Positions 5,643-17,428 of a stretch of DNA of 64,000 nucleotides are shown piece by piece. The DNA comes from a virus, in IMG/VR virus record IMGVR_UViG_3300024255_000004; one strand, written 5' to 3'. Positions within the stretch are counted from its first letter, which is position 1. Every line of letters begins with the position of its first letter. The notes beneath the pieces were generated by a model that was given only the letters and a program-made list of their open reading frames with translations, had not been told where the DNA came from and searched no databases. The translations under genes and the position numbers were made by a program.

Positions 5643-5702
5643 TAAACAAAAAAATACCATAAATAGTAGTAATACCACCAAGAATGTGGTATAATTACTA
5701 TT

Positions 5703-6905
5703 ATGGGTGCAAAAAATCTACATTTAGAACACTTAGAAGACGAGATTATCAATCAAGGGATTGATGGTGGTCGTGGTGCTATAAACTTTTTACAGGGTCT
5801 TAGAGACATGTTAAAAGGAAACTCTAATTCAAGTGTTAATATGACTGTTAAGTGGGACGGAGCTCCTGCTATTTTCTGTGGTCAACACCCCGAAACTAAT
5901 CAATTCTTTGTTGCAAAGAAATCTCTATTCAATAAAGAACCTAAGTTTTACACTTCAGAACATGAAATTAAAAATGCAGACGAACTAAGTGGTGCATTAA
6001 AAGAAAAGTTCTTAACTTCATTTCAATGTTTATCTAAACTATCTTGGAATACAATCATGCAAGGTGATTTAATGTATACCAATGATAAGAAAATGCAAAA
6101 GATTGACGGAAAATCATTCGTCACATTCCAACCAAATACAATCATGTATGCAGTAGATATTAATTCAGATTTAGGTAAAGAGATTGCAAACTCTAAAATG
6201 GGTATTGTGTTTCATACCACATACACTGGTTCTACAATAGAAGACTTGGGTGCAAGTTTTGGTGCAAACATATCTAAACTAGGAAACAGTAAAGATGTTT
6301 GGATTGACGATGCAACATATAAAGATGTCAGTGGTAAAGGTTCAATGACTGCAAAAGAAACACTTACACTTACACAAGAACTATCCAAAACAGGTAAAGC
6401 CTTCCACGGAATCAAAAAGAAAGATTTAGATAAGTTCCAAAAAATACAGGAAGAGATTGGAAAGAAAGGTGCTGGTGCATCTTACAAAACATATTGTAAT
6501 ACACTTATCAGAGGTGGTAGTTTCAATCCAACATACAAAGGATATATGGAACACTTCGAAAGCTACTGGAGAGATAAGGTGGTTGCAAAGGTCAAAATGG
6601 AAAAGACCAAACAAATCAAACAAGAGATTGGTGAACAACTTTATAACGAACTCAGAAGTTTAAAGAACATGATAACTAATCTAACTTCCTTTATGGGACA
6701 CCTAGTAGTTGCAAAACAACTTATCATAAATGCACTAAATAGAGTAAAGAGTATAGGAACTTTCAAAAAGACTGCAAATGGTTTTGAGGTAGTAAACCCC
6801 GAAGGATACGTTGCAATCGATAAAACAGGAAGTGCAGTTAAACTTGTAGACAGAATGGAGTTTGCATTCAATAACTTCACTGCACAAAAATCATGGGACA
6901 AGTAA
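5703..6905 (+). CDS. Conserved T4-like phage protein with RNA-ligase-like nucleotidyltransferase motifs (recalled as DUF6267-like)
   Basis: TVKWDG (motif I KxDG), QGDLMY (III-like), PEGYVA (IV EGxV), VKLVDR (V-like). Confidence 0.65.
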   Translation: MGAKNLHLEHLEDEIINQGIDGGRGAINFLQGLRDMLKGNSNSSVNMTVKWDGAPAIFCGQHPETNQFFVAKKSLFNKEPKFYTSEHEIKNADELSGALKEKFLTSFQCLSKLSWNTIMQGDLMYTNDKKMQKIDGKSFVTFQPNTIMYAVDINSDLGKEIANSKMGIVFHTTYTGSTIEDLGASFGANISKLGNSKDVWIDDATYKDVSGKGSMTAKETLTLTQELSKTGKAFHGIKKKDLDKFQKIQEEIGKKGAGASYKTYCNTLIRGGSFNPTYKGYMEHFESYWRDKVVAKVKMEKTKQIKQEIGEQLYNELRSLKNMITNLTSFMGHLVVAKQLIINALNRVKSIGTFKKTANGFEVVNPEGYVAIDKTGSAVKLVDRMEFAFNNFTAQKSWDK

Positions 6906-8314
6906 TGAAATCATTCAATGCATTTCTAACAGAAGCTAAAGATAAGGGTGTAGTGTTTACTTTTGGTAGATTCAATCCACCTACAACAGGTCATGGAAAG
7001 TTAGTAGACAAACTTAAAAAACAATCGGGTGGTGATGACGTTCTGTTATTCACTTCACATTCAAATGACAAGGTTAAAAATCCACTATCACACCGAGACA
7101 AGATATCGTATCTAAGAAAATTCTTTGGGAAGATTGTTGCAGACGTAAATGCAAGAACAGTATTTGAGATTGCAACAGAATTACATAAGAAGAAATATAA
7201 AAGAGTCTCAATGGTTGTTGGGTCAGACAGAGTAAAAGAGTTTGAAACACTACTAAACAAATACAATGGTGTTAAAGCACGTCATGGATTCTATAAGTTC
7301 GAAGAGATTAATATTGTATCTGCTGGAGAGAGAGACCCTGATGCAGATGATGTCAGTGGAATGTCTGCAAGTAAACTCAGAGGATATGCAGAACAAGGAG
7401 ACTTTGACAATTTCAAATTAGGTGTTCCAACAAAGAATAAAGGATTAGTTCAGAAACTTTATAACGATATCCGTAAAGGAATGGGTATTGCAGAAGGAAC
7501 ACTACCACACTACATGGTAGAAGATTTGATACAAGAAGGAGTCTATGACCCAGGCACTTTCAAAGCAGTTTTCCTAAGTGGTGGGCCAGGCAGTGGTAAA
7601 TCTGCAGTTGTAAAGAAATTAGGTTTGACTGCACTTGGTTTAAAAATGGTCAACACTGATAAAGCATTTGAGAACGGACTAAAGAAAGCAGGAATGTCAC
7701 TTGACCTTAGAGGTGCAGACTTTGATAAAGTAGACCCTATCCGTGCAAAAGCAAAAAGTATTACAGGTAAAAACTTAGATGCATATATCGATGGAAGACT
7801 AGGTCTTATCTTTGACACTACAAGTGCAAAGTCGGGTAAGATTAAGAACTACAAAAAAATGTTAGACACATTAGGATATGAATACAAAATGATATTTGTT
7901 AATGCAAGTCTAGACAATGCACAAAAAAGAAATGACTTAAGGTCTAGAAAACTACCACCCAAAATTGTAAAAGGTGACTGGGACGCTGCACAAAAGAATG
8001 CAACGGAATATAAATCAATTTTTGGTAGAGACTTTGTAGAGATTAAGAATGATGATGACATTGCAAGTCTTGATAAAAAGGCAAATTCACTATACAGTAA
8101 ACTACTAGGTTGGTCTACTTCATTCCCTAAAAACAAAATTGCAATGAAATGGAAATCTTACGAACTGATGAAGAAGACTCTTGGGTATTCATCTATGAGA
8201 AGTAAAGATGCGGTGAAAAAACCACCAACAGATAAACCAAGTCCGTTTGGGTCAAATTTAAAAACATTCAAAAGTAGAAGGACTGGTAAGAAGACAGTAA
8301 TCGGAAAGATATAA
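6905..8314 (+). CDS. Cytidylyltransferase-like (HIGH superfamily) domain fused to a P-loop kinase (AAA_33/zeta-like); IP-like N-terminus
   Basis: MKSFNAFLTEA; FGRFNPPTTGH, VVGSDR, MSASKLR; then FLSGGPGSGKS, NTD, IFDTT, lid-like RNxxRxR. Confidence 0.85.
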   Translation: MKSFNAFLTEAKDKGVVFTFGRFNPPTTGHGKLVDKLKKQSGGDDVLLFTSHSNDKVKNPLSHRDKISYLRKFFGKIVADVNARTVFEIATELHKKKYKRVSMVVGSDRVKEFETLLNKYNGVKARHGFYKFEEINIVSAGERDPDADDVSGMSASKLRGYAEQGDFDNFKLGVPTKNKGLVQKLYNDIRKGMGIAEGTLPHYMVEDLIQEGVYDPGTFKAVFLSGGPGSGKSAVVKKLGLTALGLKMVNTDKAFENGLKKAGMSLDLRGADFDKVDPIRAKAKSITGKNLDAYIDGRLGLIFDTTSAKSGKIKNYKKMLDTLGYEYKMIFVNASLDNAQKRNDLRSRKLPPKIVKGDWDAAQKNATEYKSIFGRDFVEIKNDDDIASLDKKANSLYSKLLGWSTSFPKNKIAMKWKSYELMKKTLGYSSMRSKDAVKKPPTDKPSPFGSNLKTFKSRRTGKKTVIGKI

Positions 8315-8317
8315 ATA
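8310..8317 (+). promoter_or_regulatory. T4-type late promoter
   Basis: TATAAATA immediately upstream of ORF 8323. Confidence 0.75.
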
Positions 8318-8322
8318 GTATT

Positions 8323-9798
8323 ATGTTAGAAGAACTTAGAGAAAAATTACGTAAGACCCAACAAGACAAAGAAGTTGAAGGCAAGAAAGGTTCTCAACCT
8401 AAGAAGTATTATGCTAAAGACGCAGACGGAGACGAAATGTCTCAGTCTACAAAAGATAAACGTGCAGACCACTTTAAGAATAATAAAGATAAAGAAGGTG
8501 AAGATGCATTTAAACCAGCACCTGGCGATTCAAAAGCAGATACTAAACCTTCACAACATACTAAGAAGTATAAGAAAATGTTTGGAGAAGGTGCAGCTGA
8601 TAAATCTCTACAAAAGAAAGCAGACAAGAGTGGAATGCCAGTTGGTATTCTAAAACAAGTCTACAAACGTGGAGTTGCAGCTTGGAAAGGTGGACATAGG
8701 CCAGGAACTACACCCGAACAATGGGGACATGCACGTGTTAATTCTTTTGTGACTAAATCCAGTGGAACATGGGGTGGTGCAGACCAAGACCTTGCAAAGA
8801 AAGTTTCGGGTAAATCAGAGTCAATAGAAGAAGGAATTGATATCAGAAAACAACTCAAAAAGATTAAAGGATTAACTAAGAAACAATTAGAAACATTATC
8901 AACAATGAACACTTCACAACTAACAGTTTTAGTTCAACAGTTAAGTGGTTTGGTTATGGGTGAACAAGACGAGTTAGAAGAAAGATATGCAGATAGACTA
9001 AGAGACAAAAATAAGTCTCAACAAAAGGCACATCAAAAAAGAATGATGAAGTCTGCAAAAAAATCTATCAAAGACTATGATGCAAAGAATAAGAACAAGA
9101 ACGAAGAGTCTGAAGTAGAAGAAGGTAAACTTGTCACTGATTACAGAAGTGTCTTAGATTTCATATTTAAAAATATCAAAAAGATGATTGAAAAGGAATA
9201 TGAAAAGAACTCTGAAAAAGGTTTAGGAATGATTAATCAGTTAGGTTCTTATGTTGGAATGAAAGTCACTGATAAGAAACAGGAGAAAAATAGACTCTTC
9301 CTTAAGTTTGGTGACAACATACAAGAAGACGCTACAGTTGACGCTGCAAATCTAAAAGCAAAACAAACTGAAGAACTAGAAAGATTAAAGGCAAAACAAT
9401 TACAAGAGTTAGAAGCACTACAAGATAGACACGAAAGAGAAACAGACAAAGTCAATCAACAGAAAGAAAAAGAAGCTGCAAATAAACAAATTCAAGCAAA
9501 ACGTGATGCAGATAGAAAAGCTGCAGAGAAACAAAACGAAGAAAGAGATTACAAAAAAGAGTATGAGAACTACCACTCAGACCCCGAACAAATTAAAAGA
9601 CGTGCAAAAAGAAATGAAGCACGAAGAAGTCTAAAGGACAGAAAAGGTATAAAAGGAAAGGACGTTCACCATAAGGACAACAATCCTATGAATAATGACA
9701 AGTCTAACTTATCAATTGTATCACAAAAATACAATAGAACAGAACCAAGACTTAGAAAATTGAAAGAGAAGGGGATACTTCCAAGTGGCAGGAAATAA
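8323..9798 (+). CDS. Multi-module, probably capsid-internal protein with a C-terminal HNH-like nuclease module
   Basis: Module LKQVYKRGVAAWKGGHRPG...WGHARVNSF; C-terminal KDVHHKDNNPMNNDKSNL..YNR; modules separated by xxE sites. Confidence 0.7.
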   Translation: MLEELREKLRKTQQDKEVEGKKGSQPKKYYAKDADGDEMSQSTKDKRADHFKNNKDKEGEDAFKPAPGDSKADTKPSQHTKKYKKMFGEGAADKSLQKKADKSGMPVGILKQVYKRGVAAWKGGHRPGTTPEQWGHARVNSFVTKSSGTWGGADQDLAKKVSGKSESIEEGIDIRKQLKKIKGLTKKQLETLSTMNTSQLTVLVQQLSGLVMGEQDELEERYADRLRDKNKSQQKAHQKRMMKSAKKSIKDYDAKNKNKNEESEVEEGKLVTDYRSVLDFIFKNIKKMIEKEYEKNSEKGLGMINQLGSYVGMKVTDKKQEKNRLFLKFGDNIQEDATVDAANLKAKQTEELERLKAKQLQELEALQDRHERETDKVNQQKEKEAANKQIQAKRDADRKAAEKQNEERDYKKEYENYHSDPEQIKRRAKRNEARRSLKDRKGIKGKDVHHKDNNPMNNDKSNLSIVSQKYNRTEPRLRKLKEKGILPSGRK

Positions 9799-16089: not shown

Positions 16090-16677
16090 ATGCGTATAGT
16101 CGACACCCTAATAGTATTCCGAATTCTCAAGATGTTAACCACACCTTGGAACAAAATGCAGGCATTCAAGTTTGGATTCATAGATATGAATGGAAACAGA
16201 ATCAAAGAAATTGAAGACGAGAATGGGAAAAAGATTAAGAATGACCCAGTCACAAAAAAAGAAAAGTCTTCTCTCACTCCTTTGCATAGATTAGTATTCA
16301 ATCTTAAAAAGATAATCAATAAAGTTCCCTTCGGTAAAACTCAATTTGCATCATACGTCACTGCACTTCTACTTCTGAAAGAAGAGTGTGACTTGGACAA
16401 TGAACAAGGTGAGGAGTTATACGAAAAGTTCTATAGATTCCTAAAAGAAGAGGAACTATTAGAAGCTGAAATGATTACAGAAACTATAAATGTAGGAAAG
16501 TTAATCATAGGTGAGACATATAAAATTAGATTTCCAATCAAACAAAATGATTACATTCACCAATCAAAAGAAGATGTTTTGGTTCACCAAGAATACGAAA
16601 AGATATATGGTATCCAAACATACATTGGATTTGTTAACGAAGAGAGAGTCGTATTGACTGCAGATGATGTTTATTGA
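16090..16677 (+). CDS. Conserved hypothetical protein of T4-like phages
   Basis: FRILKMLTTPW..AFKFGFID..G; RLVFNLKKII; preceded by CCTAAATA. Confidence 0.75.
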   Translation: MRIVDTLIVFRILKMLTTPWNKMQAFKFGFIDMNGNRIKEIEDENGKKIKNDPVTKKEKSSLTPLHRLVFNLKKIINKVPFGKTQFASYVTALLLLKEECDLDNEQGEELYEKFYRFLKEEELLEAEMITETINVGKLIIGETYKIRFPIKQNDYIHQSKEDVLVHQEYEKIYGIQTYIGFVNEERVVLTADDVY

Positions 16678-17428
16678 ATCGATACAAGAAATAGATAACC
16701 TTACTTTTGGTCAACAAAAAGACTTAAAGAAACCCAAGTATAAAGAACTTACACTATGGGACGAAGGTTGGGAAACTATAATGTTGGGTGCATATCCTAA
16801 AGGTCAGAAAGTTGTAGACGAACTGAAAGAAATTCAGAGATTAGTAAAGGGTGCAACAGACGAACAGAAACGTCAATACATAAATTGTGACGAAGACGCC
16901 TCATGTTATATCAAACAATACATGGACGACCATGACTTAGAATACAGTCAAGACACTATAGACTTTATCAGAAAACAATGTAGTCCAGTAATCAAACACC
17001 ACAAAAACCATTTCAATCGTGCAAGACCATATCAAGTTGCAGAACATTTAGGAATGGAATTCGAAAGATTTGAAACAGAAACAAGTAAGACACCTTCATA
17101 CCCTAGTGGACATACAACACAACCATATGTTGTAGGATTATATTACAGTAAAATGTATCCACAACACCAACAGGGAATTATGAATGGTGCAAAAATTAGT
17201 GGATTTGGAAGAGTCATAGCAGGATTGCATTATCCTTCAGACTTTGAAGCAGGTGTATATCTTGGTAAAGAATTATTCAAGTATATGAAAGTCGAAGAGA
17301 TAAATGAAGACGCACCTATGAATTCTACTGGAGGTGCAATTAGTATGCCTCCAACAATGCAAAAAAAGAAAAGAGATAAGAGATACGATACAGATAACAT
17401 GTATAAACTCTTAAGACGATACATTTAA
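16664..17428 (+). CDS. PAP2-family acid phosphatase / vanadium-haloperoxidase-like protein
   Basis: Three PAP2 motifs: KxxxxRxRP, PSYPSGH, RVIAGLHYPSD. Confidence 0.88.
   Translation: MMFIESIQEIDNLTFGQQKDLKKPKYKELTLWDEGWETIMLGAYPKGQKVVDELKEIQRLVKGATDEQKRQYINCDEDASCYIKQYMDDHDLEYSQDTIDFIRKQCSPVIKHHKNHFNRARPYQVAEHLGMEFERFETETSKTPSYPSGHTTQPYVVGLYYSKMYPQHQQGIMNGAKISGFGRVIAGLHYPSDFEAGVYLGKELFKYMKVEEINEDAPMNSTGGAISMPPTMQKKKRDKRYDTDNMYKLLRRYI

Follow-up and report, generated by a model that had tools for sequence, protein, structure and literature searches.

A probable capsid-targeted adenylyltransferase-kinase fusion encoded beside a DUF6267 protein of predicted ligase fold in a marine T4-like phage

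The IMG/VR virus record IMGVR_UViG_3300024255_000004, of which a stretch of 64,000 nucleotides was analysed (the window), contains two overlapping genes, ORF5703 and ORF6905, that were examined by family searches, structure prediction and comparison with related phages. In the explanation that we consider best, with a probability of roughly 0.6, ORF5703 has the fold of the ligase superfamily, and ORF6905, a fusion of an adenylyltransferase and a P-loop kinase, is targeted to the capsid, processed and injected. A capsid-targeted transferase-kinase that is probably processed and injected is likely; a packaged ligase in this phage is not supported. The initial annotation of the region, made from the sequence alone, had described the pair as a virion-delivered kit for RNA repair (“heal-and-seal”) or NAD salvage, and the reading frames, the stop/start overlap and all the motifs that it named are present at the positions given in Table 1.

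Leader, linker and virion evidence for ORF6905

The first ten residues of ORF6905 (MKSFNAFLTE, followed by Ala) resemble the capsid-targeting sequence (CTS) of the T4 internal proteins. IPII and IPIII, and also IPI and Alt, share a decapeptide with aromatic residues at positions 4 and 7, an aliphatic residue at position 8 and Glu10, followed by Ala. In T4, ipII and ipIII, which are annotated as internal virion proteins, start MKTYQEFIAEA, and the CTS MKTYQEFIAE is removed by the prohead protease gp21. Mutagenesis of IPIII assigned residues 4 and 7 to targeting and residues 8 and 10 to processing (PMC9026906). ORF6905 has F4, F7, L8, E10 and A11 against Y4, F7, I8, E10 and A11 in T4, so that all four functional CTS positions are matched, and the leader is conserved among its homologues. 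The T4-type CTS recognised by the initial annotation is thus borne out by these positions and by the ipII/ipIII pattern. Whereas the T4 internal proteins are small basic cargo, the cargo in ORF6905 is a two-enzyme fusion with a conserved CTS-like linker. To our knowledge, CTS targeting and cleavage have been demonstrated in no marine phage.

A loose regular expression for the leader, which is expected by chance in about 0.005 (~0.5%) of open reading frames (ORFs), recovers ipII and ipIII in T4. It gives four matches in the window, and the full form, MK[ST]F..F[IL].E, is found in ORF6905 and ORF15195. With the loose expression, 80 related viral contigs yielded the leader for the transferase in 43 of 80 homologues and for DUF6267 in 16 of 72, but in no homologue of gp41 (0/29), UvsX (0/6), o10725 (0/25), o11112 (0/22), o10475 (0/17) or o11711 (0/17); the o8323 and o9785 families, encoded just 3' of the pair, had it in 2/41 and 1/58 cases. 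The leader tracks the N-terminus and not a domain, being found ahead of DUF6267, the transferase, the kinase or an o9785-like module, whichever comes first; in the jumbo phages 121Q and Callisto, which are not T4-like, the transferase homologues lack it. A similar pattern is seen in front of DUF6267: 101 of the 109 representatives with upstream sequence have an [LIVM]xE within the 10 residues before the invariant His (mostly 4-7 residues away), compared with 9.7% of control 10-residue windows; a 10-residue leader and an entire domain upstream give the same picture. The 25 leaderless DUF6267 proteins, ORF5703 among them, start at about the predicted cut point. From these sequence patterns we infer, with good support, that ORF6905 would be targeted to the prohead core by its leader.

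Leader-like starts were also noted on several other genes. ORF15195 (15195-15635, + strand), which encodes a 146-aa protein of unknown function, is the second full CTS match in the window and starts MKTFKNFIIEE; its homologue in the Methylophilales phage Melnitz (21306-21701) starts MKNFKNHIAEE. The 54-aa hypothetical protein gp61.1 of T4, whose gene adjoins the primase gene, starts MKTFKEFIKED. Genes 15-18 of Melnitz (locus L001, 4888-9551), which encode a protein of unknown function, DUF6267, a 130-aa protein and the transferase fusion, all have such starts, namely MQGFKTFLSEA, MLTLINFSKYITED, MKKFSELTSE and MKKFSEIIEA. Two homologues of ORF6905, P0362 and P0369, are extended at the N-terminus, ahead of the normal leader, by ~65 residues that have a leader of their own, MGQMKTFKEFLKEE; judging from its sequence, this extension looks like a small leader-bearing gene that was fused upstream.

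The two domains of ORF6905 are connected by a linker that reads GMGIAE/GTLPHYMVE/DLIQE/GVYDPG, where slashes mark the three protease-like sites of the initial annotation. In T4, gp21 cleaves after (L/I)xE. This specificity is in part supported by published work (PMC9026906). Two of the sites, IAE/G and IQE/G, fit the rule, and the third, MVE/D, falls outside its canonical form. A single (I/L)xE is common, with [LIVM]xE occurring in ~10% of 10-residue windows; it is the near-invariance of the linker together with its predicted disorder, rather than the xE sites alone, that is not due to chance. Residues 190-217 (RKGMGIAEGTLPHYMVEDLIQEGVYDPG) are almost invariant in homologues that are 70-95% identical overall, which makes them more conserved than the catalytic domains, and residues 198-210 have a predicted local distance difference test score (pLDDT) of <50 and are predicted to be disordered. 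Whichever part comes next, the transferase domain of every architecture has [RK]xGMG[IL]xE at its end. Stand-alone kinases in other contigs begin with MEGVNDPSIFKAVF (MEGVNDP..., at the predicted IQE/G product) or with MNSVDKFKDFIDE/GVNDP, a leader that ends there. Because the stand-alone kinases start at the second predicted cut, it seems that a kinase gene that was once separate has kept its leader and cut site in the form of the linker. In its conservation, its disorder and the starts of the stand-alone kinases, the linker resembles a propeptide that undergoes processing, which agrees with the cleavable linker initially proposed. A gp21-type protease (PF03420) is encoded by two relatives of this phage, Melnitz and the cyanophage S-SZBM1.

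Mass spectrometry has revealed homologues of ORF6905 in the virions of cyanophages. S-SZBM1_140, annotated as “cytidylyltransferase”, was detected in CsCl-purified virions (PMC9146016); it is a homologue of the ORF6905 transferase, starts MRFRQFIIEA and adjoins the leaderless DUF6267 protein S-SZBM1_141, which is not on the S-SZBM1 virion list (PMC9146016). ORF91 of S-SCSM1, annotated as a nicotinamide mononucleotide adenylyltransferase (NMNAT), is a virion protein according to an analysis of CsCl-purified virions (PMC9602691). S-SCSM1_91 starts MKSFLQFLKEA, is 42% identical in sequence (cyanophage homologues generally 37-48%) and is encoded among consecutive virion-protein genes, one of them a homologue of ORF15699 of the window. 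Both proteins belong to the same family as ORF6905 and have the same leader, but are without the kinase domain. The cytidylyltransferase ORF154 of S-CREM2 and an NMNAT of S-CBWM1, known to us from their annotation and not compared in sequence, are likewise reported in virions, and the S-CREM2 paper remarks that such proteins recur in cyanophage virion proteomes, four in all. The published virion reports on S-SZBM1, S-SCSM1 and S-CREM2 make no mention of a CTS leader, of protease sites or of a ligase-like neighbour. With leader-bearing transferase homologues detected in S-SZBM1 and S-SCSM1 virions, the idea of at least partial packaging has gained ground. Packaging of the ligase-like protein, which was part of that idea, has lost it: ORF5703 has no leader here, and its leaderless S-SZBM1 homologue is absent from the virion list.

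The structural module of S-SZBM1 also contains two small leader-bearing genes (locus L098, 1812-2626, - strand), SSZBM1_191 (MKSFKSFLSES) and SSZBM1_192 (MKTFKQYITEAK). They lie next to a detected virion protein and are, on the basis of their starts, candidate internal proteins.

We propose that the leader would take the ORF6905 product into the prohead core, where a gp21-type prohead protease would remove the leader after E10 and cut the linker after E197 and/or E211, parting the two enzymes. These would exit the capsid with the DNA and could act before any phage gene is expressed.

Fold and family of ORF5703

ORF5703 is a full-length member of Pfam family DUF6267 (PF19782; E = 1.4e-102; 344 bits, cut-off 27; all 376 profile positions covered). 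An exhaustive search gave homologues in 2575 clusters at 50% identity, and the family is present in 404 isolate phage records, almost all of them Kyanoviridae. No literature was found on DUF6267, PF19782 or “cytitidyltransferase”. An alignment of 100 homologues with 33-70% identity to ORF5703 shows H10, K50, D52, G53, G60, K73, D122, Y149, G167, H171, E367, G368, K380 and F387 to be invariant. Since the motifs are thus retained in 100 diverse homologues, they are not due to chance. Motif V has one lysine only.

The AlphaFold2 model, built with the 100-homologue alignment, has a pLDDT of 92.9 and a pTM of 0.88. It consists of a beta-rich core (~40-215 and 347-395) that is split by a six-helix insert (217-346) separating motifs III/IIIa from motif IV, and of a long N-terminal helix that carries the invariant His. 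Some cyanophages have short forms of DUF6267 of ~298 aa that still span the whole query (ACG-2014a, locus L004, 2381-3277; S-RIM2/S-RIM8), and the helical insert is therefore dispensable or reduced in those forms. A VIA-align fold search, which covered 48,161 chains, gave RNA ligases as the top non-helical matches (NgrRnl, 5cot, Z 7.8; Trl1-LIG, 7.7; REL1, 7.5), followed by T4 Rnl2 (7.0), T4 Rnl1 (6.5), archaeal Rnl3 (6.1) and DNA ligases (5.5-6.0); these are middling values, at a level that the tool warns is common for unrelated folds. The ligase alignments comprise 166-194 residues spanning 4-394 at an rmsd of ~4 A and involve the core only. When BFVD was searched with Foldseek, the first named matches after the family itself were RNA ligases, polynucleotide kinase (PNK)-ligases and capping enzymes, with a best E of 6e-4. 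Foldseek of the whole model against the PDB, a search dominated by the helical insert, gave weak matches with E of at least 0.1, including human capping enzyme and DNA ligase IV. The ESM Atlas yielded unnamed viral clusters only.

The agreement of three structure searches with the invariant motif set makes it very probable that the modelled fold is that of the ligase superfamily; our confidence in any particular substrate is much lower. A ligase-like ORF5703 with KWDG, GDL, EGYV and VKLV motifs had been part of the initial annotation, and both the motifs and the structure searches uphold it. A kinship to the Rnl proteins is indicated in so far as RNA ligases lead the VIA and BFVD results, and does not extend to PDB Foldseek, where matches are weak, or to profile homology. 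With the ATP-dependent RNA ligases (NgrRnl/Rnl5, 5cot; Trl1, 9r3w and 6n0t; T. brucei REL1, 1xdn; T4 Rnl2, 2hvq and 1s68; T4 Rnl1, 9do4), ORF5703 probably shares the nucleotidyltransferase core and has in common the motif order KxDG, G(D/E)L, EG(Y/F)V and motif-V lysine, but no detectable sequence or profile similarity. Unlike them, it has the ~130-residue helical bundle inside the core and the long N-terminal helix with the invariant His. Unlike Rnl1-Rnl5, it has one motif-V lysine instead of two and apparently none of the clade-defining accessory domains, no match to which was seen in the model or the VIA alignments (the domains were not searched separately). ORF5703 would be a very diverged member of the lysine-nucleotidyltransferase superfamily of RNA/DNA ligases and capping enzymes, closest in fold to ATP-dependent RNA ligases. 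It most likely self-nucleotidylates on K50 and would then seal or nucleotidylate a nucleic-acid end. As it has no targeting leader in this phage, it is probably cytoplasmic.

The complete genomes of Melnitz and S-SZBM1 were searched for PF01068, PF01653 and PF09414 (ATP-dependent DNA, NAD-dependent DNA and Rnl2-type ligase), and none was found; in T4, which served as a control, gp30 and rnlB were recovered. With no other recognisable ligase in the two genomes, these phages have DUF6267 as their only ligase-like gene. DUF6267 could then be the missing nick-sealing (Okazaki/repair) DNA ligase of Kyanoviridae, replacing T4 gp30, and the transferase-kinase an unrelated injected cofactor enzyme. 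This would suit the place of DUF6267 in the replication block after UvsX and gp41, its occurrence in 404 phage records, almost all from this one family, and the missing leader of ORF5703, and the TKS element with the invariant K73 resembles, in our reading, ligase motif Ia. However, DUF6267 is without an OB domain, RNA ligases rank above DNA ligases structurally, and most DUF6267 representatives bear a CTS-like leader, for which a replisome ligase would have no need. Moreover, no DUF6267 was found next to the S-SCSM1 transferase, in a genome that was not searched in full. We consider a replicative DNA ligase possible, but fairly unlikely.

Domains of ORF6905 and competing readings

Both halves of ORF6905 have family matches (Table 1). 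PHROGs labels the first half “cytidyltransferase”, the entry phrog_455 itself being a DUF6267-transferase fusion, and the kinase matches phrog_505, “polynucleotide kinase”, at 1.8e-08. The AlphaFold2 model (pLDDT 79) has two well-defined domains, 11-195 and 215-425, and predicts disorder for the leader (1-9), the linker (198-210) and the tail (428-469). In VIA searches with the transferase domain (residues 13-196), phosphopantetheine adenylyltransferase (PPAT, Z 14.2), NadM NMNAT (13.9) and NadD (13.4) are tied. The kinase domain gave UMP/CMP kinase (Z 13.7) and adenylate kinase (13.0) in VIA and dephospho-CoA kinase (DPCK), PSTK and adenylate kinase in Foldseek. Over both domains, NadR was the best Foldseek match (E = 2e-6), followed by ATP sulfurylase-APS kinase; phmmer against PDB sequences gave only a P-loop match, and the weak HMM matches favour NMNAT families, far below the equivalog cut-offs. 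Modelling and family matches make the enzyme class clear, a PPAT/NMNAT-class adenylyltransferase followed by a P-loop kinase in NadR-like order, and the initial assignment of a HIGH nucleotidyltransferase and a P-loop kinase is confirmed by Pfam, the model, Foldseek and VIA.

The order of the two domains is shared with NadR (PDB 1lw7, 8x7f, 6gzo), but ORF6905 has no helix-turn-helix domain, its transferase is as close to PPAT as to NadM/NadD, and its kinase has no match to the ribosylnicotinamide-kinase family in Pfam and family searches. Formally, the succession of PPAT and DPCK in eukaryotic CoA synthase is just as good an analogue. The structure data separate neither NMNAT from PPAT nor PNK from nucleoside monophosphate (NMP) kinase. 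The likeliest activity of ORF6905 would be to re-make NAD+ or a related adenylylated cofactor, and this is the weak point of our explanation. The NAD salvage offered as an alternative in the initial annotation has thus found no discriminating evidence: PPAT and NMNAT are tied, and the NadR equivalog score is far below its cut-off.

DUF6267 and the transferase are found fused in both orders, and fusions to the kinase (the kinase-DUF6267 protein P0148) and to DUF5824 also exist. In P0230 (1325 aa), DUF6267 and the transferase are combined with a RimK ATP-grasp domain and a RimB-like protease. Leader-like (L/I)xE sequences are found at the junctions in front of DUF6267. Among 20 long DUF6267 fusion proteins, Pfam recognised only CTP_transf_like, DUF5824 and RimK with Zn_protease, and most extra regions matched no family. 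The fusions had at first been counted as evidence of a single pathway; this argument was dropped after the RimK/RimB fusion and the CTS-like junctions had been seen. With DUF6267 and the transferase joined to RimK/RimB in another phage, the fused domains may have in common their packaging, as polyproteins cut by a protease, rather than their chemistry. The window itself encodes a RimK-type ATP-grasp domain with a RimB-like Zn_protease in ORF41401 (41401-42828, + strand), which has a shifted leader-like start, MRNKNLLSFNELITEE; these are the two domains that are fused behind DUF6267 and the transferase in P0230.

The pair could also be a dedicated tRNA/RNA repair system, as the heal-and-seal label implied, in which DUF6267 seals, the P-loop domain is a 5'-OH polynucleotide kinase and the transferase is an accessory, and which repairs the cuts of anticodon nucleases. 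RNA ligases are indeed the nearest folds of ORF5703, ~1.5 Z above DNA ligases, PNK-ligase fusions are among the BFVD matches, the kinase matches AAA_33/Zeta_toxin, phrog_505 and, weakly, PSTK, and the P0148 fusion brings kinase and DUF6267 together. None of this is specific to the repair of tRNA or other RNA, however. A domain that would heal the 3' end, a 2',3'-cyclic phosphodiesterase or a 3'-phosphatase, is present neither in the pair nor next to it. T4 Pnk combines a kinase with a 3'-phosphatase, whereas in ORF6905, which has the kinase domain, no phosphatase domain was seen with Pfam or in the AlphaFold2 model. Many loci keep DUF6267 and the transferase without the kinase, and the kinase is structurally nearest to NMP kinases, DPCK and adenylate kinase and not to T4 Pnk. 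We know of no role for a HIGH adenylyltransferase in RNA repair, and the RimK/RimB fusion shows that fusion in this system need not imply a shared pathway. A repair kit of this kind is in our view unlikely.

Several observations weigh against our preferred explanation, a ligase-fold ORF5703 beside a packaged and processed ORF6905. No prohead protease was found in the 64-kb window, nor was there a protease match in the nearest record (G001, a 54-kb fragment). Processing of ORF6905 is well supported by the sequence comparisons, but its cut sites are predicted and no cleavage products have been observed. The virion evidence amounts to 2-4 peptides per protein, and the authors of those studies allow for carry-over of abundant proteins. 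A TATAAT-like element, and not a clean late TATAAATA, precedes ORF5703 and ORF6905. For ORF5703, the ligase Z values are middling, hhalign of the DUF6267 profile, run with the single T4 Rnl2 sequence and with an Rnl2 profile of 37 sequences, detected no homology (probability <1%), and PDB sequences searched by phmmer with ORF5703 and by hmmsearch with the DUF6267 profile yielded nothing relevant, only spurious coiled-coil matches. For ORF6905, the NadR NMNAT equivalog TIGR01526 scores 23.3 bits against a cut-off of 341, and NAD+ as the product is a guess, because Z does not distinguish between PPAT, NadM and NadD and the kinase has a generic fold.

Some of these observations would also fit a phage in which nothing is packaged and ORF6905 is a cytoplasmic NadR-like enzyme of NAD+ salvage, its N-terminus being a helix or expression start, its linker structural, and the mass-spectrometric matches contamination by abundant late proteins. 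The low peptide counts with the authors' caveat, the NadR-like two-domain match and the lack of TATAAATA enrichment in the window are in line with it. It would leave unexplained a leader that holds the four functional T4 CTS positions, moves with the N-terminus whatever domain comes first and is absent from replication proteins and from the transferases of non-T4-like phages, as well as leaderless genes that begin at the predicted cut, the recurrence of such proteins in four cyanophage virion proteomes and the location of other leader-bearing ORFs of S-SZBM1 within its structural module. We therefore regard it as very unlikely. It is highly improbable that the three activities form one injected, self-sufficient sealing system, in which kinase and adenylyltransferase would regenerate an AMP-donor dinucleotide (NAD+ or related) used by DUF6267; such a system would, if real, provide end joining from the first seconds of infection, even under NAD+-depleting or RNA/DNA-cutting defences.

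Genomic setting and significance

The source of the window is a marine T4-like myophage of the Kyanoviridae kind. GC content is ~35% across the window (AT-rich), and the + strand carries nearly all of the genes. Located 5' of ORF5703/ORF6905 are a fragment of a family-B DNA polymerase, a homologue of RecA/UvsX and a DnaB/gp41 helicase; the pair stands at the end of the UvsX-gp41 replication block, with a ribonucleotide reductase 3' of it. The nearest nucleotide relatives of the pair are Methylophilales phages of the Melnitz group (68% identity), and more distant ones are Pelagibacter phage HTVC008M and many cyanomyophages; Melnitz and those cyanomyophages that were looked up belong to the Kyanoviridae. 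The gene order UvsX, gp41, DUF6267, transferase is kept in Melnitz, S-SZBM1 and the 80 viral contigs, and in nearly all loci of those contigs with upstream sequence DUF6267 is directly 5' of the transferase.

Table 1. Positions of the features of the ORF5703/ORF6905 pair in the window (slashes mark predicted cut sites)
Feature	Position	Strand	Description
Promoter-like element TATAATTA	5688..5695	+	7 nt before ORF5703 ATG; assigned by position alone
ORF5703	5703..6905	+	400 aa; Pfam DUF6267; predicted ligase-superfamily (covalent nucleotidyltransferase) fold; no N-terminal leader
Motif I KWDG, residues 50-53	5850..5861	+	K50, D52, G53 invariant; K50 is the presumed nucleotidyl-accepting lysine
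Motif III-like GDL, residues 121-123	6063..6071	+	D122 invariant; Q120 and G121 at least 90% conserved; on model strand 118-125
Helical bundle of ~130 residues (217-346)	6351..6740	+	inserted between the halves of the nucleotidyltransferase core
Motif IV EGYV (367-370) and motif V VKLV (379-382)	6801..6848	+	E367, G368, K380 invariant; strands 368-372, 378-381
TAATG stop/start overlap	6903..6907	+	couples ORF5703 to ORF6905
ORF6905	6905-8314	+	469 aa; two-enzyme fusion
Leader MKSFNAFLTE	6905..6934	+	propeptide like the T4 capsid-targeting sequence; predicted cut after E10 (LTE/A); pLDDT <50
HIGH-motif adenylyltransferase domain, residues 11-197	6935..7495	+	Pfam PF01467 CTP_transf_like (19-122), 26.1 bits against a cut-off of 21
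GRFNPPTTGH, residues 21-30	6965-6994	+	HIGH-type motif; TTGH 27-30 invariant
MSASKLR, residues 153-159	7361-7381	+	ISxSxxR-type motif; invariant in homologues
Linker GMGIAE/GTLPHYMVEDLIQE/GVYDPG	7478..7552	+	two (I)xE/G sites; nearly invariant, predicted disordered
P-loop kinase domain, residues 212-427	7538..8185	+	Pfam Zeta_toxin 1e-07, AAA_33 1.3e-07 (220-387)
GGPGSGKS, residues 226-233	7580-7603	+	P-loop
Basic disordered C-terminal tail, residues 428-469	8186..8314	+	in only part of the close homologues

The promoter-like element TATAATTA is 1 base off the T4 late consensus TATAAATA and is preceded by a hairpin (5672-5692). Neither TATAAATA nor sigma-70-like promoters are enriched in the window, and the timing of expression can thus not be argued from counts. 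At several gene starts (5688, 8310, 11096 and others), TATAA(A/T)TA is found ~7-9 nt before the ATG without a Shine-Dalgarno sequence. This suggests very short leaders on late-type transcripts; the count of the octamer itself is not above chance.

ORF8323 (8323-9798, + strand) encodes DUF5824 with an HNH-like C-terminal part. A perfect TATAAATA (8310-8317) lies 6 nt before its start, and other phages have its DUF5824 part fused to the transferase. BLAST gave no match between ORF8323 and the “virion protein” cluster SSCSM1_89-97. In the region 3' of ORF8323, up to ~16070, ORF15699 is a BLAST homologue of SSCSM1_96 from this cluster, and ORF14897 is similar to SSCSM1_95 in its N-terminus. The block of candidate cargo genes also contains, at 16664-17428 (+ strand), a gene for a phosphatase of the PAP2 superfamily (E = 9e-12).

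The Kyanoviridae, T4-like phages that infect Synechococcus, Prochlorococcus, SAR11 and OM43, rank with the most abundant marine viruses, and DUF6267 with the transferase beside it is near-universal among them. If our explanation is correct, a large unannotated family would add a branch to the ligase superfamily and supply the sole ligase-like gene that these phages have, and the capsid-targeting mechanism of T4 would be conserved far beyond the T-even phages. Capsid targeting would then deliver real enzymes, sometimes as polyproteins that are cut by a protease. The leader and the cut sites provide a simple sequence rule by which injected proteins can be predicted in uncultured phages.

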